This document shows, in pieces, positions 10,708 to 64,000 of a stretch of 64,000 bases of DNA. Under the pieces are notes generated by a model that was not told the origin of the DNA, ran no database searches, and saw nothing but the letters and a program-made list of their open reading frames with translations. Location: NCBI GenBank assembly GCA_029936395.1, contig JAPYSW010000001.1:1427-65426 (forward strand), written 5' to 3'. A program made the translations under genes and the position numbers. The number at the start of each line of letters is the position of its first letter. Position 1 is the stretch's first letter. Source of the DNA: Candidatus Poseidoniia archaeon. Its GTDB lineage: Archaea; Thermoplasmatota; Poseidoniia; MGIII; CG-Epi1.

Positions 10708-11317
10708 TGTACCGAGAGCCTCTTGAGCTAAATCTTTTTTCAGGTAAATAAAAGCATGTAATTCTTGATATCTCTAAAGCATATGCCATTTTTACTAACT
10801 TACCACCATGCAAGTTGATTGCTTTTATTCTTGTCATTTTACCTTCAATACGAACTGTATCACCTACTCGAAACTCTTCTTGGGATTCAAATTCTTGTTT
10901 AACAGAAATCGTAGATTCTCCGTCGTGTATTGCAAATCTAACTCGAGCATGTGTTGCCCTTTTAGCCCATACAATAGGATTATCCTGTGAGTAAGCTGAA
11001 GGTGGCCGTTTACCATCCAATTCAAGACCCGTAACCAAAATTAAGCCATCCGGATGAGGTCGAGTTTCTCCTACGCTAATCACAATTCCTCTATCTACAT
11101 TTATGAATCCATTTACGGTATTCTCTTCATTCGAAATGCGCAATCTTAACTCTAATGGAGGTTCTTCTTTAATCTCAGTTGGGCCAGTGAAGTTACATTC
11201 TAAACATGTAACAACTCCCTGGAAATTAAACCCTTTTTTAGAAGAAGTACGACTTTTTAGAACTTTATGTGGGCATTCTTCTCCGCAAATTTCACAAAAT
11301 ATCCAGATTTCTTCCAT
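10691..11317 (-). CDS. Zinc-ribbon-containing protein of unknown function
   Basis: 208 aa. The N-terminus has CEICGEEC...CLEC (a C4 zinc ribbon) followed by a beta-rich domain. Its start is coupled to the purH stop (1-nt overlap). Confidence 0.45.
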   Translation of the reverse strand: MEEIWIFCEICGEECPHKVLKSRTSSKKGFNFQGVVTCLECNFTGPTEIKEEPPLELRLRISNEENTVNGFINVDRGIVISVGETRPHPDGLILVTGLELDGKRPPSAYSQDNPIVWAKRATHARVRFAIHDGESTISVKQEFESQEEFRVGDTVRIEGKMTRIKAINLHGGKLVKMAYALEISRITCFYLPEKRFSSRGSRYNGTRS

Positions 11318-16253: not shown

Positions 16254-18515
16254 TTAAGATTTCTTTGGAGATTTCTTACGTAGTGTTTCAATCAACTTAC
16301 TGGCAGTACCTTGACGGCCACCAGATAACTCACCATAATTTGCTACGTTTACTAAATTACAAGCATCAGCCTCTTCAAGCTTTGCTTTCGTAGCTAAATT
16401 CTTAATAAAATTAATTTGTTTAGGACTTGGTGCCTTAGGGACTGAATCGGTTTTATCACGTAATAATCCTATTAGTTGACTTGCAGTTCCTGCTTTCCCT
16501 CCAGATAATTCTTCAAATTTAGAAACATCTACTAAATTACATGCTGACTTTTCGTTGAGTTCTAATGACTCAGCAAGACTTTGAGCATAGGATAACTGTT
16601 TAGCAGATGCAGGAAGTGGGATGTCTTCAGTTTCTTTTTGAAGACTGTCTATAACTTCTCCTATTCTTTCACCACTCATTGTCTGTGGATCTTCTTTACC
16701 TATTACTTTTTCTAATTCTGAATCTGATACTAATGATGCCAATCTGATATAATAATCTAACTGACGTTTAGTAGGTGTCTCTTTCTTTTTCGATATAGCT
16801 TTCTCATGGAGCAGTTTAAACGAATTAACAAAACCGTCCCATACTGTGGCTCCATTTTGTTGACCTGTTTCTATTTGGTCTAACTCAACTTCCATTGTTG
16901 AAGTAAATGAAGGTGAAAATAAACTAATTTTTTCATCTTTAGATTCATAAAAAGGAATAACTTCATCACAAAGCAGTATGCCTTGATCAGTTGGCTTAAG
17001 TCTGCCTTTATTGTCACTACAATATTTACGATCTAATAATTTTTTTATTGTCGCAGCATAAGTTGAAGGACGCCCTATTCCTTCAGACTTCATTAAAGCT
17101 ACAAGACCGTGTTGTGTATAACGTGCAGGTGGTTTTGTCTTATCTTCAATAAATCTAGGATTATCTTCATTCGCATCTAATTTTATAGATTGACCCTCTA
17201 CTATTTCTGGTTTAGGGGGTGCAACGGCTGGAGCTTTTTGTATAGCTTCAAATGCGGATTCCCATCCTGAAGTTACTCTCCACTTTGTATCTCCATCTAA
17301 AGGTCTTTCAAAAGTCTCTAATTGTGTTTGTAGCTTCATACTGGTCCATTCTGAATCAATCATTTGGCTTGCAATAAATCTTGACCAAATAAGACGATAA
17401 AGGCGAACTTGAGATTCATCTAAACCACCGGGCAATTCCGTGAGGGGAGCTGTAGGTCGTATAGCTTCGTGAGCATCTTGAATACCTGATTTAGGTTTTC
17501 CTCCACCAACGCCTTTGCCGACTAAATCCTTCCCCCACTTTGAGGTTATTTTTTCTTGTGCTTTTTCACGTGAAGAGGAACTTGTTCTTGTAGAATCTGT
17601 TCTCATATAGGTTATGTGACCAGCTTCATAGAGACCTTGAGCAACCCGCATAGTGTTACTTGGCCTCCAATTATACTTACTTCCGGCAGCCTGAAGTAAA
17701 GTATCGGTTGTGAAAGGGGCCTTAGGGCGGCGTTTGTAATTATTAAGTGATAATTTTGAAACTAGAAGCTGCTTCTCGAATTTTAAACTATCATATGCCT
17801 TATTAGCTAATTCTGTACTATTTGTTCTATGTATATCTATTTTCCCTTTCTCATCCTTCCATACTAAAGAATCATCTTTATCATGAAATCGGACTCTAAA
17901 ATCTATTCCTGAGGCTAAAGCTTGAACAGCCCAGTAAGGCGTTGCTACAAATTTCTGAATATCTTTTTCTTTATTAACTACAAAAGCCAAAGCTGGAGTT
18001 TGTACTCGACCCATTGAACTAAGACCCCACGATCTAGCAAATCTTGAAGTTCGATATCCTATCAAACGATCCATGAAACGTCGAACTTTAGCAGCATCAA
18101 CCAGATTCATGTCTACAGTACCGGCCTCGTCTAAAGCCTCACGGATTGCAGTCTTAGTAATTTCATTAAAAGTTATTCTTTTTATTTCTTTAAATTCAGA
18201 AAATAATTCACTAAGTCTCCATGCTATAAACTCACCTTCTCTATCCGGATCAGTAGCTATCAACACTCTTTTAACTTTTTTACTACGCGCATCAGAAAGA
18301 ATTTTCTTAACATTTCTCTCAGCTCTTTCTGTCCAACTCCAAGGAGGATCAGGTAAATTAGACTCAGTGTGACTCCATAAAGCCTTACTTCCATCTTTAC
18401 CTTTATTTGGCAAATCTTGAATATGGCCATTAGAAGCCCTAACCAAGATATTCTTACCTAAATATTTCTGAATTGTTTTGGCTTTGGCACCAGACTCTAC
18501 TACTACTAAATCCAT
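16254..18515 (-). CDS. topA: DNA topoisomerase I (type IA) with tandem C-terminal HhH modules
   Basis: It has a Toprim start (MDLVVVESGAKAK), a Tyr active-site region and a conserved topo IA core. The C-terminus carries two repeated modules ACNLV(D/N)V...ELSGG..GTAS.LI. The track ORF extends to 18605, but the upstream extension is unlikely to be real. Confidence 0.85.
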   Translation of the reverse strand: MDLVVVESGAKAKTIQKYLGKNILVRASNGHIQDLPNKGKDGSKALWSHTESNLPDPPWSWTERAERNVKKILSDARSKKVKRVLIATDPDREGEFIAWRLSELFSEFKEIKRITFNEITKTAIREALDEAGTVDMNLVDAAKVRRFMDRLIGYRTSRFARSWGLSSMGRVQTPALAFVVNKEKDIQKFVATPYWAVQALASGIDFRVRFHDKDDSLVWKDEKGKIDIHRTNSTELANKAYDSLKFEKQLLVSKLSLNNYKRRPKAPFTTDTLLQAAGSKYNWRPSNTMRVAQGLYEAGHITYMRTDSTRTSSSSREKAQEKITSKWGKDLVGKGVGGGKPKSGIQDAHEAIRPTAPLTELPGGLDESQVRLYRLIWSRFIASQMIDSEWTSMKLQTQLETFERPLDGDTKWRVTSGWESAFEAIQKAPAVAPPKPEIVEGQSIKLDANEDNPRFIEDKTKPPARYTQHGLVALMKSEGIGRPSTYAATIKKLLDRKYCSDNKGRLKPTDQGILLCDEVIPFYESKDEKISLFSPSFTSTMEVELDQIETGQQNGATVWDGFVNSFKLLHEKAISKKKETPTKRQLDYYIRLASLVSDSELEKVIGKEDPQTMSGERIGEVIDSLQKETEDIPLPASAKQLSYAQSLAESLELNEKSACNLVDVSKFEELSGGKAGTASQLIGLLRDKTDSVPKAPSPKQINFIKNLATKAKLEEADACNLVNVANYGELSGGRQGTASKLIETLRKKSPKKS

Positions 18516-18675
18516 TAAAGGACCGCCAGAAAGGTAGAATAAATATCTTTTTCTAAGGTGTAAAAGTAGCGGGGCCCTAAGGGCCCCGAACTGAGATAGG
18601 TACAAACTAATAAAATTATTTAGGTTTTAGAATAGCATATCAAACATTAAAAAAGAACCATTATAAGAGCCTAAT

Positions 18676-35878: not shown

Positions 35879-35921
35879 TGCTGCCCATACCGCTTAATTA
35901 TTGGCTTTTACATGGTTAAAC

Positions 35922-38084
35922 ATGGGTCAAATGACCTTCGATTTCGAAGATGAAGATAATTCTCCTGAAGAGCCTCCAACTGAGGTTAATAAAGTAGTGA
36001 AAAAAAAAACCACAGAAAAAAATATAACTGAATTAGAAAAAAAAAAAGAATCGGAGAAAGAAAAAATAATCGAAGAGCCTCCGATTGAAGTGAAGAAGAT
36101 AGAAAGAAAGGAACGTAAAAAGAAACCTAAAACTAAGGCGCATCAACTCGCAAAAGAACAACGAGATATTCCCGTTTCAGAATTCTTTGAACAGAACAGA
36201 CATATTCTAGGATTTGATAATCCTACTCATTCGTTGATTACGGCTGTTAAAGAAGGAGTGGACAATAGTTTAGATGCATGTGAACAGGCTGGATTTCTAC
36301 CTGAATTAAAAATAGAAATTGGTAATTTAGGAAAAAATGAATTAAGTATTGCAATTGAGGATAATGGCCCTGGAATTATTGAAGAGAATGTACCAAACGT
36401 TTTTGGACGACTTCTGTATGGTTCTCGTTTCGGAAGTGGGAAGCAATCTCGTGGACAACAAGGTATCGGAATCTCAGCCGCTATAATGTATGGTCAATTA
36501 ACAACAGGCCGATCTGCAATTATTAGTACTAGAATATCAAAAGAGCATTTGGCAAATCGAATAACTATGAAGCTAGATACCAGAAAGAACAGAGGTAATA
36601 TTGAGCGAACTGAAGATTTTGTCTGGAAAAATGATACTGAAGAGCCTAATGAGGATGGCCTTTATCCTGAAAAGTACCACGGAACTAGAGTGGAATTTGC
36701 AATCAAAGGAAGATATCGTGAGGCTAGACCCTCCGTTTTAGAGTATCTCAAGTCTACTGCTATTGTAAATCCTCATGCTAAAATAATTTTCAAAAATCCT
36801 GAAGATAAAGTTTTCTTGTTTGATAGAGTAAGTCATGAACTTCCTAAATTACCAACTGAAGGTGTCAAACCTCATCCACATGGAGTTGAATTAGGCCAAT
36901 TAATGCGTATGGCTCATCATAGTTCTGAGCATCAAATGGGAAATTTCCTCCGTAAAGATTTCTCATCAATGGGAACTAAAAGTATAAGTGATGTTTTGAA
37001 AAAAACAAGATTAGCACCCTTAGTTAGGCCACAAGATACGACTCGAGTTGAAGTTAAAAAATTAATAGAAGCATTCAAAGTAACATCGATAAGAACACCA
37101 ACAAGTGGAGTCTTGGTACCCATAGGGCCTAAATTAATAAAGTTAGGATTAAAACAAGTTTTAGAAGAATATAGGCCTGACTTTTACACACTACCTATTA
37201 GCAGAACGCCCTCTGTTTTTTCAGGTACTCCTTTCTTAGTTGAAGTCGGAATGGTTTATGGAGGGAACTTACCAAAAGATCAACCCGTACAAATTCTAAG
37301 ATTTGCAAATAGAGTTCCTTTGCTTTACCAGGCTGGAGGTTGTGCTATTACTAAAGCTATTCAAAATATCAATTGGAGGCTTTATGGACTTGATCAAAAA
37401 GGTGGAAAAGGTACGCCAAGTGGTCCTGCAATTATTCTAGTCCATGTAGCTTCAACAAATATACCCTTCACATCTGAGGCAAAAGAAGCAATTGCAGATA
37501 TAGAAGAGATTAAAAAAGAGATAAAACTAGCCTTGCGAAACAATGCTAAAACTCTTTCAAAACACCTTAAAAAACAAAAAAAACGAGCCAAAGTTAGTGA
37601 AAAATTTGATTTAGTTCAAAAAGTTTTACCAGCTATTGCTGAAAAAGCATCAAGTGTTGTAGGTAAACCAGTGCCGAATCTGGACAAAATAGTAGCAGCA
37701 ATAATGGATGTTGTTTGGATTGAAGAAAAAATAGAATTTGAAACTGATCAAATTAAAATAGAAATTAAGATTATTAATTATCGTTTAAGGTCAGCTAATT
37801 TCAAATTAAGAGTGGAAGTACCAGGCCATGAAATTACAGAAGAATTACCTAGACCTGGGAAAAAGGAAGGAAGTCATGTTATTTGGTCTGTAGGTTTACC
37901 AACCACCGAATCTGCAAAATATAAATTTGTGGTACCTCAAGGGAATCGAAGTAGTTTTGAAGGATTAGAGATATGGGTAGAAGGAATTGATTCCACAAAT
38001 ATAATCGGAGCTGAAAAATGGACTGGAGTGATTGATCCCGGAATAAATGAAGCCTTAGAAGCTGAAAAACAAGGACTTGGGTAA
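35922..38084 (+). CDS. top6B: DNA topoisomerase VI subunit B
   Basis: The Bergerat ATPase fold is present (GVDNSLDA, IEDNGPGI, GSRFGSGKQSRGQQGIGISAA), then H2TH, a transducer and a C-terminal Ig-like domain. The track ORF starts at TTG 35901; the ATG at 35922 is more likely. It has an N-terminal Lys/Glu-rich extension of about 90 aa. Confidence 0.85.
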   Translation: MGQMTFDFEDEDNSPEEPPTEVNKVVKKKTTEKNITELEKKKESEKEKIIEEPPIEVKKIERKERKKKPKTKAHQLAKEQRDIPVSEFFEQNRHILGFDNPTHSLITAVKEGVDNSLDACEQAGFLPELKIEIGNLGKNELSIAIEDNGPGIIEENVPNVFGRLLYGSRFGSGKQSRGQQGIGISAAIMYGQLTTGRSAIISTRISKEHLANRITMKLDTRKNRGNIERTEDFVWKNDTEEPNEDGLYPEKYHGTRVEFAIKGRYREARPSVLEYLKSTAIVNPHAKIIFKNPEDKVFLFDRVSHELPKLPTEGVKPHPHGVELGQLMRMAHHSSEHQMGNFLRKDFSSMGTKSISDVLKKTRLAPLVRPQDTTRVEVKKLIEAFKVTSIRTPTSGVLVPIGPKLIKLGLKQVLEEYRPDFYTLPISRTPSVFSGTPFLVEVGMVYGGNLPKDQPVQILRFANRVPLLYQAGGCAITKAIQNINWRLYGLDQKGGKGTPSGPAIILVHVASTNIPFTSEAKEAIADIEEIKKEIKLALRNNAKTLSKHLKKQKKRAKVSEKFDLVQKVLPAIAEKASSVVGKPVPNLDKIVAAIMDVVWIEEKIEFETDQIKIEIKIINYRLRSANFKLRVEVPGHEITEELPRPGKKEGSHVIWSVGLPTTESAKYKFVVPQGNRSSFEGLEIWVEGIDSTNIIGAEKWTGVIDPGINEALEAEKQGLG

Positions 38085-38857: not shown

Positions 38858-41800
38858 ATGGTAACATACATAACTAATAGAAAAACTAAAGAAGAAGTTT
38901 TGAATGGTTTTGAACCTTTAATTCGAACTTGGTTTAATAACAAGTTTGATGATTTAACTCCGCCTCAGGCAATGGCAGTCCCATTAATAGAGAAAAATAA
39001 AAATGTCCTTGTTTCAAGTCCAACCGGGACTGGGAAAACCTTAACTGCATTTTTAAGTATTCTAAATAATTTTCTTAAACTCCACCGTGAAGATAATTTT
39101 GAAGATGGTGTCCATGCAATCTATATTTCACCGTTAAAAGCTCTCGCAAATGACATTGATCGAAATTTAAAACAACCTCTTGAAGAAATGATGGTATTGG
39201 CTAAAGAATTAGAAATAGACGTACCTGAAATTAAAGTAGCAGTTAGATCAGGTGATACGTCACTTAAAGAAAGAGCGCGGATGGTTAGGAAGCCACCACA
39301 TATCATAATTACTACTCCTGAAAGTTTAGGTCTTTTATTATCATCCAAAAAATTTAGAGACCATTTCAAAAGAACTAAATATATTATTTTAGATGAGATA
39401 CACGACTTAGCCAATAATAAGAGAGGCACACACCTATCACTTTCCGTTGAAAGATTGGCTCAGATTATCGATCGTGAACCTGTAAGAATAGGATTATCTG
39501 CAACTCAAGCACCTATTGAAGATATTGCGGGATTTCTAGGAGGGTACTACCAAGGGAAACCAAGGCATGTAAATATTGTAGATGTTAAGGAAAGAAAACA
39601 TTTAGACCTAAGGGTTCTTTGCCCTGTCGACGATCTTACTTTACATTCGACCGAAGTTATTAATTCGAAAATGTATGATCTTCTCGTGGATTTAATTAAA
39701 GATCACCGAACCACTTTAATTTTCACAAATACAAGAGCCGGAACTGAATCTATTTCATTACAACTTAAAGAAAGAGGAATCGAAAAATTAGCTGCACATC
39801 ACGGTTCATTATCAAAAGAAATGAGATTTGATGTTGAGAAAAAATTAAAAGGAGGAGAAATGGATGTCGTAATTTCTTCAACGAGTCTTGAATTGGGGAT
39901 AGATATTGGATATGTGGACTTAGTTGTTCAAATTGGATCCCCTAAATCTATTGCAAAAGGCCTACAACGTATTGGAAGATCTGGGCATGCTTTAAGAGCC
40001 ATATCAAAAGGTAGACTGGTTGTATTTGATTCCGACGATTTAATTGAATGTGCCGTTTTAGTTAGATCGGCTTATGCTGGAGAAATTGATCGTGTTTCAA
40101 TACCTGAAAAAGCTACTGATGTTTTAGCTCAGTCTATCATTGGAATGTCATTGGATAGAACATGGAATGTTGAGGAAATGTATAAACTCATAATTTCGGC
40201 ATACCCATATCGTAATTTATCTAAAAATGAATTTTTAGAAATATTGGATTTCTTGGGTGGAAATGCATTAGAAAAACACGGTGTTTATCCTAAAATTTGG
40301 TATGATAAAACTGTAGGTGAAATTGGAATAAAAAGAGGTTCACGTCAAATTTATAATATGAATATAGGTACCATTCCGCAGGAGATAAACTATGCAGTCG
40401 TCCTTGAAGGAAGAGGCGCCCAATTAGGGAACTTATCTGAAAAATTTGTTGAAAATCTATCCAAAAATGATATTTTTGTTCTGGGAGGGCGAACATATCA
40501 ATTTTTAGAATCGAATAGATCTACTGTGGTTGTAAAAGATGGACTTGGGAGAAAACCAACCGTACCTTCTTGGTCTGGAGAAATGTTACCGCGTTCTTTT
40601 GATTTATCTGAAGCTGTTGGAAGATTCAGAGGTGAAGTTGAGGAAAAATTAAAACTTACCGAAGAAGAAATTTATAGTTGGCTTGAAGATGAATTTAAAT
40701 TAGACAAAGGTGCTGCTAGAACTATAATCTCGCATTTAGATGAACAGAAGAAAATTTGTGGATTTATCCCTTCAGACAAAGATCTTATGGTTGAAGGATA
40801 TATCGATAATAGGGGACGGAATGGAGCAATATTCCATTTTCCTTTTGGTAGAAGAGTCAATGATGCTTTGGCAAGAGCATTTGCATTCCAACTAGGAAAC
40901 GAAATTGGAGGAAGTGTTAGGATTTCATTAAGTGATGATGCATTTTTATTAACATTTCCGACTAGATTGGCAATTGAAGGAATTGCTGACAGACTAATGC
41001 CAAAAAATTTAGAACCATTATTACGGAAATCTATTGCCAATACCGAAATCTTTGCACAAAGATTTAGACACTGTGCTAATCGTTCATTCATGGTTCTACG
41101 GAACTACAAAGGTAGAGAAATATCATTACCAAGGCAACAATTGAGAACCGCACAAGTTTTAGAAGCCATTAATGAAGTTGGTACTTTTCCTATGCTAGAA
41201 GAAGCATATCGTGAAGTATTACATGATGCTTTTGATTTAAAAAATGCACAAGTCATTATAGATGATATTGAAAATGGAAAAAGAAAGATTCATTACAGAA
41301 CTTATTCACCAGTTCCATCTCCCTTATCTCATAGTTTAATCCTATCTGGACTTAGTGATATTGTTCTAATGGAGGATCGTTCCGCCCTATTAAGGGAATT
41401 ACATTCTCAAGTATTAGGGAGAGTTCTTGAAGAAGGGGGTGGAGACAAACCTAGATTTGAAAAAGATATGATAGAAGGATACTTCAACGAAAAGAAACCT
41501 ATTATTGGAAGCAATGAAGGAGTAATTCAAGCGATAAAACAAATTGGTGGAATTTATCTATTAAATGATCAAGAAAAATCAATCTATCGCATGTCTGATA
41601 TGCCTACTACCGAAATACAAGAACTATGTAACTATATGATTGAAGAAAATATTGTAGAATCTGTATGGAATGGAAATAAGGATTCATTATTTGTTATGCC
41701 TGAAATGGTTCCATATTACAAGGCAATTTATGGTATTGATGAAAAATTATCAAAACAAGCTAAGAAAGTATATGACAAATTAGAAAAAGTAAAAGATATT

Positions 41801-44194
41801 AAATCAAAAAAAATCTGTGAAGAATTAGAACAAAACTATTTGGTTTGTAAAACTCCAAATGGAATTATAAGAAGAGATATCAAGACTACAATATCCTACG
41901 AAAAAGCATTAGATTGGGTAATTATCAAGCATTTGGGATTTACAGGTCCTAGATCTAAAGAGGACATTTCCTTAGAACTTAGATTGCCTGAAGAAATTAT
42001 TAATCAAACATTATACGAACTTGAAGAACAAGGCACAATACAAGGTGGAAACTTTATTTTAGGACGAAGTTCGCCACAATATCTCTTAGCTGAAGATATA
42101 ATCTACTTAGAAGCTCAAGCTTTAGGAAATATAGACGTAGTTCCAGAAAAAATATTAAGAGAATATATCGATCAAAAACTTTTCAAGAAATTTCCAAGTC
42201 TCCAAACTTTATTTGATCAACATAATGATGTTGCATCGCCTCGAACTGTTTTCCATAGATTAGAAAATCCTGATTTAGAAGAGTGGTGGGAATGGAGAGA
42301 CTCGGATGCAATATTACAAGGCCGATTTTCAGCCGGGAAATTGAGATACGTACCCGCCAATAGAGTTGGAATATATCAAGCTTTATTCAGAAGAGAAGCT
42401 GATGGAAAAATACAGAATTTAATTGTAGATATGTTAAAGAGAAGCCCACCTCTTTCAAAAAGCGAAATTACAAAAGAATTGGAAATAAAAACCGAATTAG
42501 TAGACGGGGCACTAAGAGCATTAGAAGAAAAACTCATGATTCATCGCTACAATAGACATAGAAATCCCTGGACAACACATAATCGTTATCGTCTTCTTAA
42601 TGAATATGAAGCACCTGAAAAACCAGAAAGAAAGTTAATGATTGATCAATTACGAAGCAATGGGCCTCTAACTTTTGCTGAATTAAGAAGAGAATGTGGA
42701 TTGCCACTAAATATAACTCGAAATATTTTAAATTCACTTCAAGAAGAGAATTTAATAGCGAAAATTGTAGTGGTTGGAGCCACCCGTCTCTTCACTTATT
42801 GTCTCAAAGAGGAAGTTGAACTCATTAAAAATACTATTGAGAAAAGAACTGTGCGAGTGACCTCATGGAGAGATCCAATCCTAACTCATATTAGAAGAGA
42901 AATGTATTCGTCATATGGTGAGGCATGGACTAATCCAATCATTTGTGGAGGAATGGTAGCCGGATATATGGAATCTTGGGCGATGTCAGGATTATTAGAT
43001 GTTAGAGAAGTAATTCTTGATGACGATACCCCAATTAGCGATTTCTTAGATGGTTTAGATGAATTTGCAACTTATCAAGAAAATTTCCACAGTAATATCA
43101 TAAGAGTAAAGGCTTTTGCTAGCACAAAAGTTGAAGATTTAGATGAAGATATTATAAACCAATTTGAACAGAAAGGGTACCAGAGAATACGGAATTGGTT
43201 AGTTAAAGGTCCAGTGATAAATAGAACATATCAAGAAAGGGAAATCTATGGATATTTACTGTGGAGACAATGTATACATCCTGAAAAAAGATACAATGAT
43301 GCCTCAATGGCATTCCGTGAAATGGGAGGAGTACGATCTGAATATGAATTATCATTAAGAATTCAGGGGCGTTTCTTTCATCCAAGAGATTATGGAAATG
43401 AAATGGAATTAGTTCAAGGAGTTATGATTCCAGGATACTCAACTTACTGCACCGTTAGAGATGCAATTATCTATCGTGATGCTCGAAATATGCCACCTGA
43501 ACCTGATGACCGAAGATTATTGGCCCTAGCTATTGATTCAAAAGGATTACCAAGAGAAGAATTATATCGTAGAAGTGGAATGGATCCTGATTCTTTCAAA
43601 CAATCTTTAGCTAGACTTTATCAATCTTTAAATTTAGTAAGAACTACAAGAGGAAACTATCGGACCTTACCAGTCAATCGAATCTATGAACCTGAAGAAG
43701 CAAAATTCAATGTTGTGAAAAGACTAATCATGTCATTCGGTATTGTTTCTGCTGAAGGGCTTGGAATGCTTTTGAAAGGTGAAATCCCAATGGCTGAACT
43801 TAGAAGTATTCTTCTAAGACTAGAATCTGAAGAAATTCTTGTTAAAGGATTTTTAAAAGAAGATAGTGATATACTCTATTGGATTCTAAAAAATGATCTA
43901 GAACATGTTAAAGGTCACTTATTTCAAGGAAGTTTCGTTCTAAATCAAGGCGACCGATTAGCCCATTATCTTAGTGAAGATGTTAAGCAAAAGTTTGGAT
44001 TAGGGGCATGTAATGTTATTTTTAGTTCAACGCGAATGACTGGAGCCTTTAAAATGTCAAAAAGAGGTAAGGATGTCACTATAACTGAATTTAAGGGAAC
44101 AAATCATGAGAGGCATGTTATCGAAGCATGGTGCCGTCAATGGAGACTCAATTTAGAATGGGAACTCAAAACTGATGAAAAGGTTGAAGTTTAA
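38858..44194 (+). CDS. lhr: Lhr-type large ATP-dependent helicase (long, bacterial-type, with a multi-winged-helix C-terminal region)
   Basis: 1778 aa. The Lhr-core N-terminus has Walker A SSPTGTGKT, DEIH (ILDEIHDLAN), motif VI (QRIGRSGH) and Lhr domain 4. The ~900-aa C-terminal extension has repeated WH-like segments. Confidence 0.85.
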   Translation: MVTYITNRKTKEEVLNGFEPLIRTWFNNKFDDLTPPQAMAVPLIEKNKNVLVSSPTGTGKTLTAFLSILNNFLKLHREDNFEDGVHAIYISPLKALANDIDRNLKQPLEEMMVLAKELEIDVPEIKVAVRSGDTSLKERARMVRKPPHIIITTPESLGLLLSSKKFRDHFKRTKYIILDEIHDLANNKRGTHLSLSVERLAQIIDREPVRIGLSATQAPIEDIAGFLGGYYQGKPRHVNIVDVKERKHLDLRVLCPVDDLTLHSTEVINSKMYDLLVDLIKDHRTTLIFTNTRAGTESISLQLKERGIEKLAAHHGSLSKEMRFDVEKKLKGGEMDVVISSTSLELGIDIGYVDLVVQIGSPKSIAKGLQRIGRSGHALRAISKGRLVVFDSDDLIECAVLVRSAYAGEIDRVSIPEKATDVLAQSIIGMSLDRTWNVEEMYKLIISAYPYRNLSKNEFLEILDFLGGNALEKHGVYPKIWYDKTVGEIGIKRGSRQIYNMNIGTIPQEINYAVVLEGRGAQLGNLSEKFVENLSKNDIFVLGGRTYQFLESNRSTVVVKDGLGRKPTVPSWSGEMLPRSFDLSEAVGRFRGEVEEKLKLTEEEIYSWLEDEFKLDKGAARTIISHLDEQKKICGFIPSDKDLMVEGYIDNRGRNGAIFHFPFGRRVNDALARAFAFQLGNEIGGSVRISLSDDAFLLTFPTRLAIEGIADRLMPKNLEPLLRKSIANTEIFAQRFRHCANRSFMVLRNYKGREISLPRQQLRTAQVLEAINEVGTFPMLEEAYREVLHDAFDLKNAQVIIDDIENGKRKIHYRTYSPVPSPLSHSLILSGLSDIVLMEDRSALLRELHSQVLGRVLEEGGGDKPRFEKDMIEGYFNEKKPIIGSNEGVIQAIKQIGGIYLLNDQEKSIYRMSDMPTTEIQELCNYMIEENIVESVWNGNKDSLFVMPEMVPYYKAIYGIDEKLSKQAKKVYDKLEKVKDIKSKKICEELEQNYLVCKTPNGIIRRDIKTTISYEKALDWVIIKHLGFTGPRSKEDISLELRLPEEIINQTLYELEEQGTIQGGNFILGRSSPQYLLAEDIIYLEAQALGNIDVVPEKILREYIDQKLFKKFPSLQTLFDQHNDVASPRTVFHRLENPDLEEWWEWRDSDAILQGRFSAGKLRYVPANRVGIYQALFRREADGKIQNLIVDMLKRSPPLSKSEITKELEIKTELVDGALRALEEKLMIHRYNRHRNPWTTHNRYRLLNEYEAPEKPERKLMIDQLRSNGPLTFAELRRECGLPLNITRNILNSLQEENLIAKIVVVGATRLFTYCLKEEVELIKNTIEKRTVRVTSWRDPILTHIRREMYSSYGEAWTNPIICGGMVAGYMESWAMSGLLDVREVILDDDTPISDFLDGLDEFATYQENFHSNIIRVKAFASTKVEDLDEDIINQFEQKGYQRIRNWLVKGPVINRTYQEREIYGYLLWRQCIHPEKRYNDASMAFREMGGVRSEYELSLRIQGRFFHPRDYGNEMELVQGVMIPGYSTYCTVRDAIIYRDARNMPPEPDDRRLLALAIDSKGLPREELYRRSGMDPDSFKQSLARLYQSLNLVRTTRGNYRTLPVNRIYEPEEAKFNVVKRLIMSFGIVSAEGLGMLLKGEIPMAELRSILLRLESEEILVKGFLKEDSDILYWILKNDLEHVKGHLFQGSFVLNQGDRLAHYLSEDVKQKFGLGACNVIFSSTRMTGAFKMSKRGKDVTITEFKGTNHERHVIEAWCRQWRLNLEWELKTDEKVEV

Positions 44195-45095: not shown

Positions 45096-47189
45096 ATGGC
45101 CTCTCTAAGAACTTTCATGCTTTGGGCATTGATGATTAGTCTAAGCCTTGTCATGGGCTCAGCAAGCGCTGACGATGAATACGAATTTAGGTTTGATGAT
45201 CCGGTTAACGGAGAAGGGAATGTAGACCCTGATGATACAATTGATTTAAATGTATCTATTGAAAATTATTTAGATATTCAACATGAATTCGAATTATTCA
45301 TAACCAATGCTAATGATTTAGATAGTTCGGGACTAGATGTTTGGTGGAGCAGTGATGGACAAGATGATATTTCATCCGAATCTACTACACTACCTTCCGT
45401 TGAAGTTCCAGATGCTTCTGTAAGAGAAGGAATAACGGTTAGTGTTAGAGCTACGAGTACTGCACTCTATGGAACATATGATATTAATTTAAAATGCCGT
45501 GATAAAGACAATAGTGATCCTGAAGGAACGAAACAATTACAGACATTATCTGTAAGTGTTAATGAAAAAACTGGAGTCTCTTTAGGGGTAGCCGAAAGTG
45601 GAACTAATCAAGGCTCGGTAGATGTAGATAGTGAAACTACATATTTAATTCAAGTTAATAATGTTGGAAATAAAGAAGATACTATTAGTCTTTCATATTC
45701 TTTAAATGATTGGGATGCTGATTTTAATACGAATTCTATTACAATTCAGCCTTTCTCAAGCCAAAATGTAATTTTAACAATTGGAACTGATAGTAATGTT
45801 GAATATGGTGATAATGACGACATAACTATAATGGGAACTTCTGGAAATTCAGGAGATAAAAAAGATACTTTAGATTTAACGACCTATGTTAGAGTATTAT
45901 ATGGTCTAGACCTTACTGCCACGACCGTTACCAAAACGGGAGAGCCTGGAGAAAAAATAATTTTTAATTTTCAAATAATGAATAAATGGTCTGATAACGT
46001 AGATTTCGAAATAACAAAAAAAGAGTGGTATAGAGGATCCATAGACAATCCTCCACAAGGATGGACCTCTATTGATGGAACGGGACTATTGGATGCCTTT
46101 GAAGAAACAACAACCTCGAGTACTGAAAGCTTATCTGTTACAATATCTTCTAGCGCAGATGCTGGTGAAGTTATAACTATTATTGTAATTGCTAAAGTTA
46201 CAACTTGTCCAGCAATATTACTCGATACTTGTGCAATACAAACGGAAATTGAAGTACGTGTTGAAGGTAATTATAATATTAAACTGAAATTGCCTCAAAG
46301 TGATCAAATAAATTTAGATGCAGGAATATCCGTTAGTACTTCAAAATATGTAGAAGTTATTAACCATGCTAAAGTTAGTGATTACATTACAGTTACTGCA
46401 ACTTGGGAAATTGGAGGTAATGATTGGACTCTAGATATCCCTGAACCGTTTGTAGTTGATGCGGGAGGAAGTAGTATAGAAAAAGGAACTCCTGTATTTA
46501 TTAAAGTAAAAGCTCCGGAGAGTGCTATAGATAATACCGCTATTTTAAAAATTAGAGTTACATCTGGTGGAGATAATACAAAATATGATGAAGCAAGTAT
46601 AACATTTAGCGTTAACTCTGCTGCAAGCACTTCAGGGCCTGAAACTGAAAAATTAGACGAAGAGGGTGGCTTACCTATTGACCCTATTTGGTTAGTTTCA
46701 ATTGTTCTTATAATTGGTTTAGGAAGTGCTGCAGTCTTTGGTCTTCAACAAAGATCAAAAGGAGCCTTTGGAGGTTCTGAGGAAAATACGGATGATTTTA
46801 GTGATGAATGGGCAGGTATGGAAGGTGCTACTGGAGCACCTCAACCTATAGCTCCACCTCAACCTGTGGCTCCGCCTCCTGCACAACAAGCCCCTCTACA
46901 ACCTGTGGCTCCACCTCCTGCACAAACACCACAACCTGTAGCTCCACCTCCGGCTGAAGCTCCACCGAGTATGGCTGCAATTCCACAACCTGTAGCTCCA
47001 CCTCCTGTACAAGCACCTCCACAACCTGTAGCTCCACCTCCGGTCGCACCAACAATATTGACTGTTACAGTACCAGCAGGAGTCGTGGCTGGACAACAAA
47101 TACAAATTAAAGCCCCAACTGGACAATTAGTGAACGTAAAGGTTCCTGAAGGGTGTGGACCTGGTTCTCAATTTAAGATACAAATTTAA
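45096..47189 (+). CDS. Secreted acidic type-I membrane protein with a cytoplasmic Pro-rich PQPVAPPP repeat tail
   Basis: 697 aa with a signal peptide (MASLRTFMLWALMISLSLVMGSASA) and a large acidic Ig-like/beta-rich ectodomain. There is a single TM helix (IWLVSIVLIIGLGSAAVFGL), then 8 imperfect PQPVAPPP repeats, and it ends ...GCGPGSQFKIQI. Confidence 0.7.
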   Translation: MASLRTFMLWALMISLSLVMGSASADDEYEFRFDDPVNGEGNVDPDDTIDLNVSIENYLDIQHEFELFITNANDLDSSGLDVWWSSDGQDDISSESTTLPSVEVPDASVREGITVSVRATSTALYGTYDINLKCRDKDNSDPEGTKQLQTLSVSVNEKTGVSLGVAESGTNQGSVDVDSETTYLIQVNNVGNKEDTISLSYSLNDWDADFNTNSITIQPFSSQNVILTIGTDSNVEYGDNDDITIMGTSGNSGDKKDTLDLTTYVRVLYGLDLTATTVTKTGEPGEKIIFNFQIMNKWSDNVDFEITKKEWYRGSIDNPPQGWTSIDGTGLLDAFEETTTSSTESLSVTISSSADAGEVITIIVIAKVTTCPAILLDTCAIQTEIEVRVEGNYNIKLKLPQSDQINLDAGISVSTSKYVEVINHAKVSDYITVTATWEIGGNDWTLDIPEPFVVDAGGSSIEKGTPVFIKVKAPESAIDNTAILKIRVTSGGDNTKYDEASITFSVNSAASTSGPETEKLDEEGGLPIDPIWLVSIVLIIGLGSAAVFGLQQRSKGAFGGSEENTDDFSDEWAGMEGATGAPQPIAPPQPVAPPPAQQAPLQPVAPPPAQTPQPVAPPPAEAPPSMAAIPQPVAPPPVQAPPQPVAPPPVAPTILTVTVPAGVVAGQQIQIKAPTGQLVNVKVPEGCGPGSQFKIQI
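46839..47050 (+). repeat. Imperfect in-frame tandem DNA repeat (about 24-27 nt units) encoding PQPVAPPP(A/V)Q
   Basis: The units cctcaacctgtggctccacctcctgcacaa, ccacaacctgtagctccacctccggctgaa and similar recur about 8 times. This region produces the spurious minus-strand ORFs 46846..47055 and 46896..47126. Confidence 0.8.
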
Positions 47190-53682: not shown

Positions 53683-56687
<3,005 letters not shown>

Positions 56688-59584: not shown

Positions 59585-60061
59585 TTAACGTGATTGAACT
59601 GATAAAGTAGCTGTTTTGGCCATGATAATTTTTTGTTTCTCTTCAAATGACGGATTTTTAACAATTGAAGTTTCGAGATTAATATTCGAATAATCAAAAG
59701 AATTACCTGAAATTATTGATTCATCGGTGTCTACCATATCTGATAATTCTAAAGGTGGTTCACCAAAAGAAACCCAAGCAACCGATTTTGTGTTTACATC
59801 AATGCCTCCTATTTGAATTGCCTTTGAAATTTGTCTCTGAAAAGTTAAATACAGCAAAACTTCCGTCGATCTTTCTTTAGATAAATTATAATTGCCCTCA
59901 TGAGACTTATCTGCTAGAAATGCGGCCTGTTTAAGATGAAGTGAACCGCAAACACATTGTGGATTAATTAAAGCAAAATTCGGGCTGATGAGTAACTTAA
60001 GCTTCTCAATATCTTGTATGCGTAAACTACCACTACCTACTACTATTTCCACAAAACACAA
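59585..60061 (-). CDS. cgi121: KEOPS complex subunit Cgi121
   Basis: 158 aa. ...ALINPQ.VCGSLHL..AAFLA.......NLSKERSTEVLLYLTFQRQISKAIQIGG parallels the archaeal Cgi121 core (ILVRASGQRQIHEAIKIIG in M. jannaschii, recalled from memory). Confidence 0.6.
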   Translation of the reverse strand: MCFVEIVVGSGSLRIQDIEKLKLLISPNFALINPQCVCGSLHLKQAAFLADKSHEGNYNLSKERSTEVLLYLTFQRQISKAIQIGGIDVNTKSVAWVSFGEPPLELSDMVDTDESIISGNSFDYSNINLETSIVKNPSFEEKQKIIMAKTATLSVQSR

Positions 60062-60118: not shown

Positions 60119-60823
60119 ATGGGTCTTGAAAACGAAGAAAAATTTGCTCAAATAGAGAGCAGCCTAAGTCTAGAACAACAAAGATTAGAAAAACTTTGGG
60201 ATGCATATGAACAACAAGAAAAAGATTTGAATGCTGCATTGGATCGCATTAATTTCTTAGAAGCTGATATAGAAACAAAGCAAACTATGATTGCTTCTTT
60301 ACAAGAATTACTAGTGGAAAGAGACAACAAACTTCGTGATATGGAAATTGAAAGACAGAGGCAAGGTAAAGTTGAAGCTGAATATGAACCTCGAATTAAT
60401 GTAATGGAAGATACTATGAATGATCAAACTGAAAAGTATGATCGGCTTTTATCAATAACCCAAGAAATGGAAGATGAATTGGATCTTGCTAGAAAATCAT
60501 TACATGCAAGAGATAGCTGGTTTAATCTAAATGTTAGTAGCTTAGAATCAATATCTGAAGTTATCAAAGAATGGCGTAGCATTCAAGCCGGGAAGTTTCC
60601 AGCAGCTGGTAAGGCCAGTGGACCTGGAGGTGGAAAAGCAGAATTCATCGAATCGGTATCAAAGATTAAAGGACTAGGAACCATAAAAGCTGAGAACCTA
60701 TATGATTCTGGTTTCCATACTGTAGATGATTTAAAAGCTGCAAGTCTTGATGATGTTTCAAGCGTTATAGGATTTACGAAACTCAGTGCTAGTAAAGTAG
60801 TAACTGGGGTAAAAGATCTTTAG
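60119..60823 (+). CDS. Coiled-coil protein with C-terminal helix-hairpin-helix-like segment
   Basis: 234 aa. The N-terminal ~130 aa are heptad-rich and Glu/Lys/Leu-rich. The C-terminus has IKGLGTIKAENLYDSGFHTVDDL (an HhH-like GhG). Confidence 0.45.
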   Translation: MGLENEEKFAQIESSLSLEQQRLEKLWDAYEQQEKDLNAALDRINFLEADIETKQTMIASLQELLVERDNKLRDMEIERQRQGKVEAEYEPRINVMEDTMNDQTEKYDRLLSITQEMEDELDLARKSLHARDSWFNLNVSSLESISEVIKEWRSIQAGKFPAAGKASGPGGGKAEFIESVSKIKGLGTIKAENLYDSGFHTVDDLKAASLDDVSSVIGFTKLSASKVVTGVKDL

Positions 60824-61362
60824 ATTAGCAAAAAATTAGAAACTATTTTTTCATTTCTGACTTCTGGATGAAAAGATATCCCGTATATCTCTTTACTAAC
60901 ATGTTTAACAGCTTGAATGCAGCTTTCACTCTTAGCTAAAACTGAAAATTTGTCAGAATCTTGAACCGAATAGTTATGAAGATTATAGGCTTCAAAATTA
61001 CCATCAAACAATTTATTTGGTTCTAATGTCTTTACTTCAACCATTCCTATTTCCACATTATCAATTAATCCACTTATGCCAAATATGGAGGTTAAAATTT
61101 GCATACCTGAACAAATACCCAAAATTGGTCTTTCAAAATTTTTTAATAATGTGTCAAAAAAAGGTAACAAACTAATGTAGGCGAAATCTTGTAATGAAGT
61201 ACCACAAAGGATTACTCGGTTATACTTTGAAACTATTTCTTTACTACAATCCTCAAAATTTAGAATATCATGGTCATTATCACCTAATATCTCAGAAATT
61301 GGATAAACAAATTCTCTTTCACTTAACCTATTTTCACAAGTTGAAATCAAAAGTGTACTCAT
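60820..61362 (-). CDS. Class I glutamine amidotransferase (stand-alone GATase subunit)
   Basis: 180 aa with the catalytic Cys in GICSGMQ and the His-Glu pair in FHPEV. Confidence 0.75.
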   Translation of the reverse strand: MSTLLISTCENRLSEREFVYPISEILGDNDHDILNFEDCSKEIVSKYNRVILCGTSLQDFAYISLLPFFDTLLKNFERPILGICSGMQILTSIFGISGLIDNVEIGMVEVKTLEPNKLFDGNFEAYNLHNYSVQDSDKFSVLAKSESCIQAVKHVSKEIYGISFHPEVRNEKIVSNFLLI

Positions 61363-62033
61363 TCCAAAAAAGCCTCCTGGATTTCTAAGCGACCTGAAAA
61401 ATTAGAATAATGCTTTTGTGATTTCGTAATAATTATAGAGTTCGTGAATAAAGGGGCATTGACTACAAAAGATTCGATTTCACCACCCTCTCCTGCAGGG
61501 TTTATTCTATAACTCGATTCTAAAACTATCAAATGGTTTACACACTCTAAATTAATAGAACGACCTAACCAAGAGTCATCAAATGGTTCTGCCGCAACTC
61601 CAGTTATAATTGACTCTATATTGTTGAACAATAAATCTTGAAGAAGGGCTCTTTGGGGCCTTTGCCATAATGGATTAAAGCACCACAAGTCTAAATCATT
61701 GCAAATTTTTTGAATTCTTGTAGATTGATAAACCGATGCAAGAGCTCCTGTGACAATTCCATCTATTGAATGTTTAGAAACGGCTGATTCAATAATATCT
61801 CTTAAATCATCTAATTCTTCTTCTTTAACGCCACTTGTTTTCTTTATGATATGATTAATCTGCATGGATTCTGCCTGAAGTTTTGTCCATTCTATTGCAG
61901 GTGTGTGAAACATCCAACTATCTTCTTTCTTAGACTCTAATGTTAAAAGACAAGTAATCTCATGCTCTTCTGAAGCATATTGAAGAGCAAGATACGAATC
62001 TTTACCTCCTGAGAATAAAACCCCTACTTTCAT
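61359..62033 (-). CDS. PP-loop ATP pyrophosphatase of the Dph6/DUF71 type (candidate diphthine--ammonia ligase)
   Basis: 224 aa. The N-terminal MKVGVLFSGGKDS is the DUF71/Dph6 PP-loop, rather than the GuaA SGGVDS. The length matches archaeal Dph6, not GuaAB (about 305 aa). Confidence 0.6.
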   Translation of the reverse strand: MKVGVLFSGGKDSYLALQYASEEHEITCLLTLESKKEDSWMFHTPAIEWTKLQAESMQINHIIKKTSGVKEEELDDLRDIIESAVSKHSIDGIVTGALASVYQSTRIQKICNDLDLWCFNPLWQRPQRALLQDLLFNNIESIITGVAAEPFDDSWLGRSINLECVNHLIVLESSYRINPAGEGGEIESFVVNAPLFTNSIIITKSQKHYSNFSGRLEIQEAFLE

Positions 62034-62620
62034 CTATATTTCCTTTTAGCAATCAAATAAACTTCACTAGACTGCTTTCTAGAAGCTTCGGGAGATAATG
62101 TACGGACTGAACCAAACTCCTCTATGACTGCTTTACGGAATTCTTGGAAATCTGAACCTTCAAAAACTTTGACAACAAAGGCTTGAGCATTTCTTTCTGC
62201 GGCAATTTCTAAGGCTAAAGTTGATAACTCAACGGAACGTGCTTGATCAATTGAATAATTACCGGATAAATTTGGACTCATATCTGAAATTACAACATCA
62301 GCCTTTGGAATTAATTTTTGTAATTCTTCTCTAATCTCAATATCTCGAAGATCACCCTGAATAAATGTAGCTCTTGGGAGTGGTAAGATATGCTGAAGAT
62401 CAACTCCAACCAATTTACCTTCTTCCTCCATTAATTCTAAAGCTACTTGAGACCAACCACCCGGTGCGGCGCCCAAATCTAAGACGATGCTGCCTTTCTT
62501 GAAAATTTTACTTTTCTTCTGAATATCCATTAACTTGTATGCTGAACGTGCTCGATATCCTTCTCGCCTAGCTTTTCTTTGAAAGGCATCAGTGCGGCCT
62601 TGACGGCCTTGGCCTGGCAT
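62030..62620 (-). CDS. rrmJ: 23S rRNA (uridine-2-prime-O)-methyltransferase RrmJ/FtsJ
   Basis: 196 aa. RSAYKLMDIQKK...GSIVLDLGAAPGGWSQV and the DxSP catalytic region are present. Confidence 0.85.
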   Translation of the reverse strand: MPGQGRQGRTDAFQRKARREGYRARSAYKLMDIQKKSKIFKKGSIVLDLGAAPGGWSQVALELMEEEGKLVGVDLQHILPLPRATFIQGDLRDIEIREELQKLIPKADVVISDMSPNLSGNYSIDQARSVELSTLALEIAAERNAQAFVVKVFEGSDFQEFRKAVIEEFGSVRTLSPEASRKQSSEVYLIAKRKYR

Positions 62621-63565
62621 TTACCCTCCAGCCTTTTTGAGAGCCCATTCTGCAGCTTGACATATGTTTCGTTCGGCTCCAGTTTTAGTCCGATTACGTA
62701 TTATTTCTAAATGTGGTTTAACTAAAGCCGGTTTGTTAGAAGCGATGTATCCCAATGCCTTAACAACTTCGACATGAATATACCAATCATCATTCTTTAG
62801 AGCTTTAGCCAGTTTAGGAACTGCATGGTAAACTACCATTGCATTCTTACTTCCTATTCTTCCAATAGCTTTTGATGAAGCCTTTCTAAGCTCTGAAGAC
62901 TTACTTTCAATGCCTTTTATTAAACCTGGAATTGCTGGCTTCATTGCATCTGGATTTGAAAGTCCAAGAATTCCAATACAGTCTGCTGCTCTTTCTTTCA
63001 ACCGTTCTCCTGAATTAAATGCTTTTATTACTTCTGGGGCCAAAGATGCTGAAGGTCCCGGATATTTCTTAGCAAAATCTGTCAAAATTACTATTGAGTG
63101 ATAAACTACTCGCCAATCATCATCACTTAACGCTTTTTTTAATTCAGGCAATGCGGCCTTAGGTACTGTATTCAATATTTTCATTAATGACTCTTGAGTC
63201 TGATATCTGATATCTTTATCTTCATCACTTAATATTTCAAATAAATCTGCGATAGTGTCACTCTTTTGAGCATTAGATTTAAGTGAAAAACGAGTCCAAA
63301 TTTCTACTACTTTACTACGTACATTTGGATATGGACTGTCAAATGTTTGCTGCATTGCATCAAAAATTTCCTTATCTTTAGACGGTCTATGTTTACGTAA
63401 TTCCATTAAACCATCAATAATTGCTTCTTGAGTAGTACCTGGCTGCTTTGGAAGAACTCTTGTAAAAGAATTTATTATAGGATCTAACCATTTCTCATCA
63501 ATCTGAGCCTGAATTACAAGTGCTTTAACTGCAGCAGTTCTTTCAATTTCAGAACCACTCTCCAT
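62621..63565 (-). CDS. HEAT-repeat (PBS-lyase-like) protein; start placed at internal Met
   Basis: It has repeated ~30-aa alpha-helical HEAT-like units. The track ORF extends to 63775, but that N-terminus is low-complexity and overlaps the divergent gatD start, so I truncate to MESGSEIERT... (63565). Confidence 0.5.
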   Translation of the reverse strand: MESGSEIERTAAVKALVIQAQIDEKWLDPIINSFTRVLPKQPGTTQEAIIDGLMELRKHRPSKDKEIFDAMQQTFDSPYPNVRSKVVEIWTRFSLKSNAQKSDTIADLFEILSDEDKDIRYQTQESLMKILNTVPKAALPELKKALSDDDWRVVYHSIVILTDFAKKYPGPSASLAPEVIKAFNSGERLKERAADCIGILGLSNPDAMKPAIPGLIKGIESKSSELRKASSKAIGRIGSKNAMVVYHAVPKLAKALKNDDWYIHVEVVKALGYIASNKPALVKPHLEIIRNRTKTGAERNICQAAEWALKKAGG

Positions 63566-63724
63566 TTCCACCAAATTCTTTTCAATCTTTCTATCGGGTG
63601 AATTACCACTTACATCCTCAGTCCATTGACTTACACTTTCCTTAAGATTCTGCAATCTATCTCTTAAACCCACAAAAACCCATAGGGGATGTATAGTAAT
63701 AAACCTCCGCTTGAATGAAGGAAT

Positions 63725-64000
63725 ATGCCTACATCGGCGGAAAAGTTTATTCAAGACAACGGAGCTGAAGTTCATGATAAAGTTAGAATCGAAAACAAGA
63801 CCCTAACTTATGAAGGATTGATTCTACCTAAACATAAATTTTCAGGAGAACATATAATCATGATTAAGCTTGATAATGGTTATAATATTGGAGTGTCTAC
63901 TGAAAATGCAAAAATGACCATATTATCTAAAGCAAAACAAACGGATTATGAACTAACTAAAAAAATTAAAAACGATAAATTAAATAATATAACTATTTTA
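63725..64000 (+). CDS. gatD: Glutamyl-tRNA(Gln) amidotransferase subunit D (GatD), N-terminal fragment (runs off the window)
   Basis: Manual translation gives MPTSAEKFIQDNGAEVHDKVRIENKTLTYEGLILPKHKFSGEHIIMIKLDNGYNIGVSTENAK... The LKLDNGYNIGI block is the GatD N-terminal domain signature. Confidence 0.7.
   Translation, partial: MPTSAEKFIQDNGAEVHDKVRIENKTLTYEGLILPKHKFSGEHIIMIKLDNGYNIGVSTENAKMTILSKAKQTDYELTKKIKNDKLNNITIL

Follow-up and report, generated by a model that had tools for sequence, protein, structure and literature searches.

Where do archaea obtain the nitrogen for the last step of diphthamide biosynthesis? This step, the amidation of diphthine on elongation factor 2 (EF-2), is written as ammonia-dependent (EC 6.3.1.14), and the source of the ammonia in vivo has been open since the amidating enzyme Dph6 was identified. 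We addressed this question with two genes near the right end of a 64-kb stretch of Marine Group III (MGIII) Poseidoniia archaeon DNA, hereafter the window, in which the gene of a 224-aa PP-loop ATP pyrophosphatase overlaps that of a 180-aa class I glutamine amidotransferase (GATase). From comparative genomics and structure prediction, we consider it likely that the products of this gene pair form a diphthamide synthetase of two subunits that hydrolyses glutamine. Archaea with the pair, or with its fused form, would probably use glutamine, and not free ammonia, as the source of the final diphthamide nitrogen.

Assignment of the PP-loop protein to archaeal Dph6

The locus had been introduced by a preliminary description made from the DNA sequence, and its coordinates, protein lengths, motifs and 4-nt overlap all match the list of open reading frames (ORFs) and the junction sequence. 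That description favoured a Dph6-type PP-loop protein and disfavoured a split GMP synthase, GuaAA plus GuaAB, and it named a profile assignment as one check. In the Pfam search, PF01902 covered residues 1–220 of the 224-aa protein (E 9e-57), whereas neither GMP_synt_C nor NAD_synthase was matched. The protein also passed the NCBIfam equivalog model for archaeal Dph6, TIGR03679 (Dph6_archaeal), with 261.5 bits against a cut-off of 197.3, and missed the models of the DUF71 paralogues, PAB0415_fam (49.7 against 250) and TTX_0299 (28.7 against 250). Furthermore, it aligned end to end with the Pyrococcus crystal structures of PF0828 (3RJZ, E 1e-44) and PH1257 (2D13).

Nine conserved Dph6 residues have been listed in the numbering of PF0828, namely S44, Y45, E78, Y103, Q104, A149, E183, E186 and E188, and all of these apart from E188 make up the eight-residue modelled interface between PF0828 and EF-2 (PMC3541065). 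In the alignment to 3RJZ, eight of the nine are identical in the window protein, and Y45 is replaced by tryptophan. Its PP-loop motif, MKVGVLFSGGKDS, contains SGGKDS, as against the SGGVDS of the GuaAB PP-loop, and the protein does not qualify as a GuaAB. Because the GMP_synt_C and NAD_synthase signals are missing and the Dph6 model, structures and residues are matched, we assign the 224-aa protein as a true archaeal Dph6 and not as GuaAB. The doubt expressed earlier about a GuaAA plus GuaAB pair was thus well placed: the PP-loop protein lacks the GMP synthase C-terminal dimerisation domain and passes the Dph6 model, and a split GMP synthase is not supported as its identity by these profile comparisons.

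The partner protein is a class I glutamine amidotransferase, probably distinct from GuaAA

We then investigated the 180-aa protein. It matched PF00117 with 50.1 bits against a gathering threshold of 22.8 (E 3.5e-13), and its AlphaFold model, computed from 55 homologues with a predicted local distance difference test (pLDDT) score of 90.4, has the α/β fold of GATase1 proteins. The nearest folds are ammonia-donating amidotransferase subunits, with GuaAA and PabA among the best structural matches. The triad Cys84-His165-Glu167, carried by the motifs GICSGMQ and FHPE, is invariant in all 84 orthologues aligned, and these orthologues show little or no variation at E17, F18, P21, D59 and H129 and in the HPEVRN motif. 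Judged from these residues, the protein looks catalytically competent.

Could this protein be the GuaAA subunit of a split GMP synthase, lying beside dph6 by accident or serving both GuaAB and Dph6? We regard this as unlikely. GuaAA models, NF001975 and TIGR00888, are indeed its best specific matches in NCBIfam, GuaAA subunits are also its best matches in the PDB, and JGI annotates it as GMP synthase (the identical NCBI protein, CXT75_00315, is named 'hypothetical protein'). In addition, no other GATase was found in the window or in the 10 kb beyond its left end, and neither guaA nor guaAB was present in the stretch inspected, namely the window and about 16 kb of flanks. However, the protein scored far under the equivalog cut-offs of both GuaAA models (70.1 against 198 for NF001975 and 63.5 against 172.15 for TIGR00888), and its alignment to the GuaAA subunits in the PDB was limited to residues 75–177 (E 2.4e-15), while the N-terminal third holds invariant residues specific to its own family. 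It is also closer to the GuaAA of Pyrococcus (60 bits) than to that of Thermoplasma, a member of the same phylum (37 bits).

Conservation of the dph6–GATase pair

We scanned GTDB, at one genome per species, with the alignment of the GATase family as the query, and kept the best 80 loci. By their record titles, these belong to the Poseidoniia (MGIII, and one Thalassarchaeaceae genome of Marine Group II, MGII), Woesearchaeota, Nanoarchaeota, Nanohalarchaeota and Bathyarchaeia, with a few titled Methanosarcinales or Halobacteriota. A tblastn analysis located dph6 on the same strand, immediately or closely upstream of the GATase gene, in 78 of the loci; in the remaining two the GATase gene lies at a contig end, and all 78 informative loci thus carry dph6. 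Since the loci were found through the GATase alone, this adjacency is far beyond chance. For a GuaAA, such a constant place beside dph6 would not be expected, nor would the covalent fusion to Dph6 seen in Methanothrix and in DPANN archaea; furthermore, a motif scan of all fetched loci detected no guaAB near any of them.

ORF parsing of the 80 loci showed the −4 nt overlap between dph6 and the GATase gene in the large majority, in every lineage. The exceptions are a few gaps of 2–54 nt and four gaps of 0.2–1.7 kb, and in two of the four wide-gap loci unrelated genes are inserted between the pair. The ATGA overlap would be a signature of translational coupling of the two genes. When the ORFs of these loci were clustered, Dph6 and the GATase were the only families common across lineages, while the rrmJ, Cgi121 and HEAT genes near the pair were confined to about 24 Poseidoniia loci. 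The gene immediately preceding dph6 is rrmJ in 24 of the 80 loci (22 at 80–94% identity, and L038 at 62%) and in none of the Bathyarchaeia or DPANN loci, and rrmJ is therefore a Poseidoniia-specific operon context outside the conserved pair.

Natural fusions of Dph6 and the GATase

A search with Dph6 homologues returned close Poseidoniia relatives, and fusions were found instead through the GATase. We searched 1.84 billion representative proteins exhaustively with HMMER, using the profile of the GATase as the query, and obtained 206 clusters at E ≤ 1e-30; Pfam analysis of the best 150 matches identified seven as fusions of 411–470 aa, with Dph6 at the N-terminus and the GATase at the C-terminus. 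The best 120 matches to a fusion profile were all fusions (388–689 aa), so that there are at least 120 further ones. They occur in Methanothrix (many), Micrarchaeota, Aenigmarchaeota and Woesearchaeota, and those of Methanothrix are named plainly 'diphthine--ammonia ligase' at NCBI. In 82 aligned fusions, the linkers are 18–67 aa long, and the fusions are thus not frameshift read-throughs of overlapping genes. Artefacts of sequencing frame or gene calling were also ruled out by the many independent assemblies and lineages and by the long contigs, up to 3.0 Mb, that carry several of the genes.

The triad and the GxCxGxQ elbow are kept in 77 of these 82 proteins, and the fused GATase domains likewise score below the GuaAA cut-offs (55–97 bits). 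AlphaFold modelling of one fusion, P0276, with the 82 fusion sequences gave a pLDDT of 94.5 and a predicted template modelling score (pTM) of 0.92. For a protein of two domains, this pTM indicates a defined packing, in which the Dph6 and GATase domains of the model hold a confidently fixed mutual arrangement. The N-terminal domain of P0276 superposes on PH1257 and PF0828 (TM 0.94), and the C-terminal domain on GATases of the GuaAA type.

One longer protein, P0496 (689 aa, NCBI, on a 6.6-kb contig), has Dph6 followed by a class I GATase and then by a C-terminal class I S-adenosylmethionine-dependent methyltransferase (Methyltransf_11/25/31), which differs from the Dph5 fold.

Distribution of the partner among Dph6 proteins

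To view the pair from the side of Dph6, a metagenome scan was seeded with Pyrococcus Dph6, which gave 80 Dph6 loci, 67 of them with enough flanking sequence. A class I GATase partner was found in ten of the 67, always directly downstream, one of these (L161) being a fusion. Another seven (L103, L116, L117, L119, L120, L139 and L145; about 10%) have Dph6 fused at its N-terminus to AsnB, which consists of a class II glutamine amidotransferase (GAT-II) and an Asn_synthase domain, and the other loci are stand-alone. That an unrelated glutaminase class, GAT-II, is also fused to Dph6 suggests convergent solutions to the same need. In a further locus, L152, Dph6 carries a 170-aa N-terminal extension without a Pfam match.

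On a neighbour-joining tree of 230 Dph6 proteins, the partnered state is clustered, with eight parsimony changes for 164 partnered and 51 unpartnered proteins. Five Dph6 positions, Q108, C118, N120, P150 and P179, separate the two groups; P179 immediately precedes the GEGGE motif. These class-specific positions fit co-adaptation with the GATase, and shared ancestry could give the same pattern. The Dph6 equivalog cut-off was passed by partnered, fused and unpartnered proteins alike; partnered and fused homologues from other phyla scored 267–289 bits with TIGR03679 and lay far below the cut-offs of PAB0415 and TTX_0299. The partnered genes are thus Dph6 orthologues, and not a paralogue of different function.

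Proposed reaction

In PP-loop amidotransferases, a carboxyl or oxo group is adenylated by the PP-loop subunit, and the ammonia is supplied by a class I glutaminase that as a rule works only within the complex. By analogy with these enzymes, Dph6 would spend ATP on adenylating the diphthine carboxylate of archaeal EF-2 (aEF-2). The 180-aa GATase is predicted to bind Dph6 and to hydrolyse glutamine through Cys84-His165-Glu167, and the nascent ammonia would pass from the GATase to the active site of Dph6 and attack the acyl-adenylate, to yield diphthamide, AMP and pyrophosphate (PPi). The predicted overall reaction is ATP + diphthine-aEF-2 + glutamine + H2O → AMP + PPi + diphthamide-aEF-2 + glutamate. 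Translation would be coupled through the ATGA overlap, so that both subunits are made together, and in other lineages the same two modules would act in one polypeptide. We infer the physical complex of the unfused proteins, the transfer of ammonia, the dependence on glutamine and EF-2 as the substrate.

It is reasonably probable that such a glutamine-hydrolysing diphthamide synthetase is a widespread unrecognised enzyme with a new EC 6.3.5-type activity on a protein substrate, and that its dedicated class I glutaminase associates with Dph6, by docking or by fusion, in major uncultured groups, namely the Poseidoniia (MGII/III), the Bathyarchaeia and several DPANN phyla, and in Methanothrix.

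Counter-evidence and remaining alternatives

Several observations weigh against a glutamine-hydrolysing diphthamide synthetase. The support is comparative or predicted throughout. The window contains purH (11317–12873); the organism thus makes purines and needs the glutaminase of a GMP synthase, which the 180-aa protein would supply if it were GuaAA. Furthermore, 57 of the 67 Dph6-seeded loci have no partner within 4 kb, so that Dph6 in general can do without the partner, and some unpartnered loci, such as L157, are closely related to partnered Dph6. Finally, the catalytic cysteine is replaced by glycine in five of the 82 fusions (P0474, P0483, P0485, P0486 and P0487), which read GIGSG instead of GICAG or GICSG and retain the histidine and glutamate; the P0487 gene lies on a contig of 790 kb. 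A conventional glutaminase is ruled out for the domain in this subclade, and the domain may be an inactivated pseudo-glutaminase kept for some other purpose.

These five fusions, which keep the domain without its nucleophile, speak for an alternative in which the GATase-fold protein is a partner of Dph6 that supplies no ammonia, such as a structural or regulatory subunit, a docking module for EF-2, or a γ-glutamyl or C26-type hydrolase acting on another target. The weak Pfam matches of the GATase to Peptidase_C26 are in line with it, as is the fact that stand-alone Dph6 works partnerless in many archaea. We nevertheless consider it quite improbable, because a triad and elbow invariant in 84 of 84 unfused proteins and kept in most fusions would be difficult to account for if there were no catalysis; the ammonia-donor nature of the nearest folds and the independent fusion of an unrelated glutaminase class to Dph6 argue in the same direction.

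It is highly improbable that the amidation target of the pair is not diphthine on EF-2 but another substrate, such as the corrinoid carboxylate suggested for the DUF71-B12 subgroup: the DUF71 family is indeed not monofunctional (PMC3541065), and one fusion gene, on a 3.0-Mb Methanothrix-type contig, adjoins a CobQ/CbiA-type gene, but all of the partnered and fused proteins pass the Dph6 cut-off and keep the modelled EF-2 interface residues of PMC3541065, the Y45 replacement in the window protein apart, and the Poseidoniia context, with rrmJ and Cgi121, is translation-related. No B12 gene is conserved beside the pair in the 80 loci, and the CobQ-like neighbour was thus judged coincidental; a B12-salvage reading of that locus was rejected for this reason and on account of the Dph6 equivalog passes. 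The pair is also present in the DPANN lineages Woesearchaeota, Nanoarchaeota and Nanohalarchaeota, which generally have small genomes and limited biosynthesis.

Comparison with known systems

The closest parallel to the proposed diphthamide synthetase is the two-subunit archaeal GMP synthetase, in which a stand-alone class I triad GATase of about 180–190 aa, GuaAA, works with a PP-loop ATP pyrophosphatase, GuaAB, that adenylates the substrate before the attack of ammonia; M. jannaschii and P. horikoshii (PH1346/1WL8) are examples. As with GMP synthetase, separate-subunit and fused forms occur in different lineages. The differences lie in the PP-loop partner, which here is Dph6 (DUF71) without the GMP_synt_C dimerisation domain and not GuaAB, in the predicted substrate, which is diphthine, a side chain of the protein aEF-2, instead of XMP (xanthosine monophosphate), and in the GATase, whose family is set apart from GuaAA by invariant motifs of its own, in the N-terminal part and at HPEVRN. 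The Dph6 fusions are, moreover, ordered PP-loop then GATase, the reverse of bacterial GuaA.

With the stand-alone archaeal Dph6 (PF0828/PH1257; EC 6.3.1.14), the window protein shares the PP-loop, the GEGGE motif and full-length orthology, and the same ATP-dependent amidation via an adenylate would be expected. Known Dph6, however, is described as an ammonia user, whereas here a class I glutaminase gene is translationally coupled or fused to it. In yeast, Dph6 carries C-terminal RidA (YjgF) domains, in place of which the archaeal pair or fusion has a class I GATase module; the RidA domains are essential for yeast Dph6 and were suggested to generate ammonia (Uthman et al. 2013, PMC3585130). The ammonia source for Dph6 has been proposed to vary, with AsnB/GAT-II fusions and eukaryotic RidA domains as cases (de Crecy-Lagard et al. 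2012, PMC3541065). The AsnB-DUF71 fusions of that study resemble the present system in that a glutamine amidotransferase module attached to Dph6 was proposed to supply ammonia, but their glutaminase is a class II domain of the Ntn type, placed N-terminally and accompanied by a second PP-loop domain, in contrast to the class I triad enzyme found here.

Full-text literature searches on Dph6, diphthamide or DUF71 together with glutaminase returned this 2012 paper and nothing else relevant, and the paper mentions neither a class I GATase partner, nor a class I fusion, nor Methanosaeta/Methanothrix. The class I GATase partner of Dph6 is described in no paper that these searches found, and glutamine-derived ammonia for Dph6 itself is not wholly new. 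The earlier proposal that a dedicated glutaminase makes Dph6 glutamine-dependent gains support from the Dph6 identity, the failed GuaAA cut-offs, the conserved pair and the fusions. One caveat applies to its accompanying view of Dph6 as a user of free ammonia: a glutamine source had already been proposed in 2012 with the GAT-II/AsnB fusion (PMC3541065).

If the assignment is true, a conserved class I glutaminase, coupled or fused to Dph6, gives a concrete answer on the ammonia source for a large part of the Archaea, including abundant ocean plankton living at nanomolar ammonium. The PP-loop amidotransferases would gain a protein-modifying member, and the built-in ammonia generators of Dph6, each of independent evolutionary origin, would number three or more: the class I GATase, the class II GATase of the AsnB type, and RidA domains. 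Annotations would be corrected as well, for the subunit now called 'hypothetical protein' or 'GMP synthase' and for the fusions called plain 'diphthine--ammonia ligase'. In addition, the natural fusions would be convenient for structural work on the delivery of ammonia to a protein-bound adenylate.

Organisation of the locus and other genes in the window

The right end of the window carries four co-directional minus-strand genes in the order HEAT, rrmJ, dph6 and GATase (Table 1), with 4-nt overlaps linking rrmJ to dph6 and dph6 to the GATase gene. The dph6/GATase junction reads GGAGGcttttttggaATGAgt. A six-frame motif scan of the window revealed no further PP-loop (SGGxDS) or GATase (GxCxGxQ or HPE) motif. 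The same four-gene arrangement is present, identically, in a 122-kb JGI contig, and a 184-kb NCBI contig, JAPOGN010000044.1, is identical to the left end of the window. A scan for sigma-70 promoters and terminators gave site counts not above those of shuffled controls, and such a sigma-70 scan is uninformative for an archaeon.

Table 1. Features of the dph6–GATase locus (window positions) and of one fusion-bearing contig.
Feature	Position	Strand	Basis or remark
dph6, 224-aa PP-loop ATP pyrophosphatase, predicted diphthine-amidating enzyme (DUF71/COG2102)	61359–62033	−	ORF list, Pfam, NCBIfam
PP-loop SGGKDS of dph6	61995–62012	−	within MKVGVLFSGGKDS
Class I (triad) GATase, 180 aa, predicted glutaminase subunit	60820–61362	−	ORF list, PF00117
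GATase catalytic codon, Cys84	61111–61113	−
GATase catalytic codon, His165	60868–60870	−
GATase catalytic codon, Glu167	60862–60864	−
ATGA overlap, 4 nt (dph6 TGA stop and GATase ATG start)	61359–61362	−	sequence read directly
GGAGG, Shine-Dalgarno-like, 10 nt ahead of the GATase start codon and still within dph6 (3' end)	61373–61377	−	putative function
rrmJ/rlmE-type (RrmJ/FtsJ) rRNA 2'-O-methyltransferase gene, upstream of dph6	62030–62620	−	Pfam FtsJ, E 1.6e-51
HEAT-repeat protein gene	62621–63775	−	ORF list
CbiA/GATase_3 (CobQ/CobB-type corrinoid amidase-synthase) gene, 75 nt upstream of a Dph6-GATase fusion	L165 6408–7925		3.0-Mb Methanothrix-type contig

RrmJ/RlmE is the type of the 2'-O-methyltransferase that acts on U2552 of 23S rRNA, and rrmJ, dph6 and the GATase gene form a chain of translation-apparatus modifiers in the Poseidoniia and related Thermoplasmata (24 of the 80 GTDB loci). 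A gene of the KEOPS component Cgi121 lies nearby (59585–60061; Pfam, NCBIfam). A second enzyme of translation-factor modification, deoxyhypusine synthase (Pfam DS; 3057–3986, minus strand), which modifies aIF5A, is encoded in the same window.

The window is also dense in topoisomerase genes, encoding GyrA, GyrB, the B subunit of topoisomerase VI and a type IA topoisomerase (3979–6567, minus; 54765–56678, minus; 35901–38084, plus; 16254–18605, minus), and a type IB topoisomerase (Top1B_N_bact and Topoisom_I; L001 96–1220) lies just past its right end. Two ORFs have no Pfam match at E ≤ 1e-8, one of 395 aa (9520–10707, minus) and one of 697 aa (45096–47189, plus). At 38858–44194, an ORF of 1778 aa encodes an Lhr-type helicase that has a long extension at its C-terminus.

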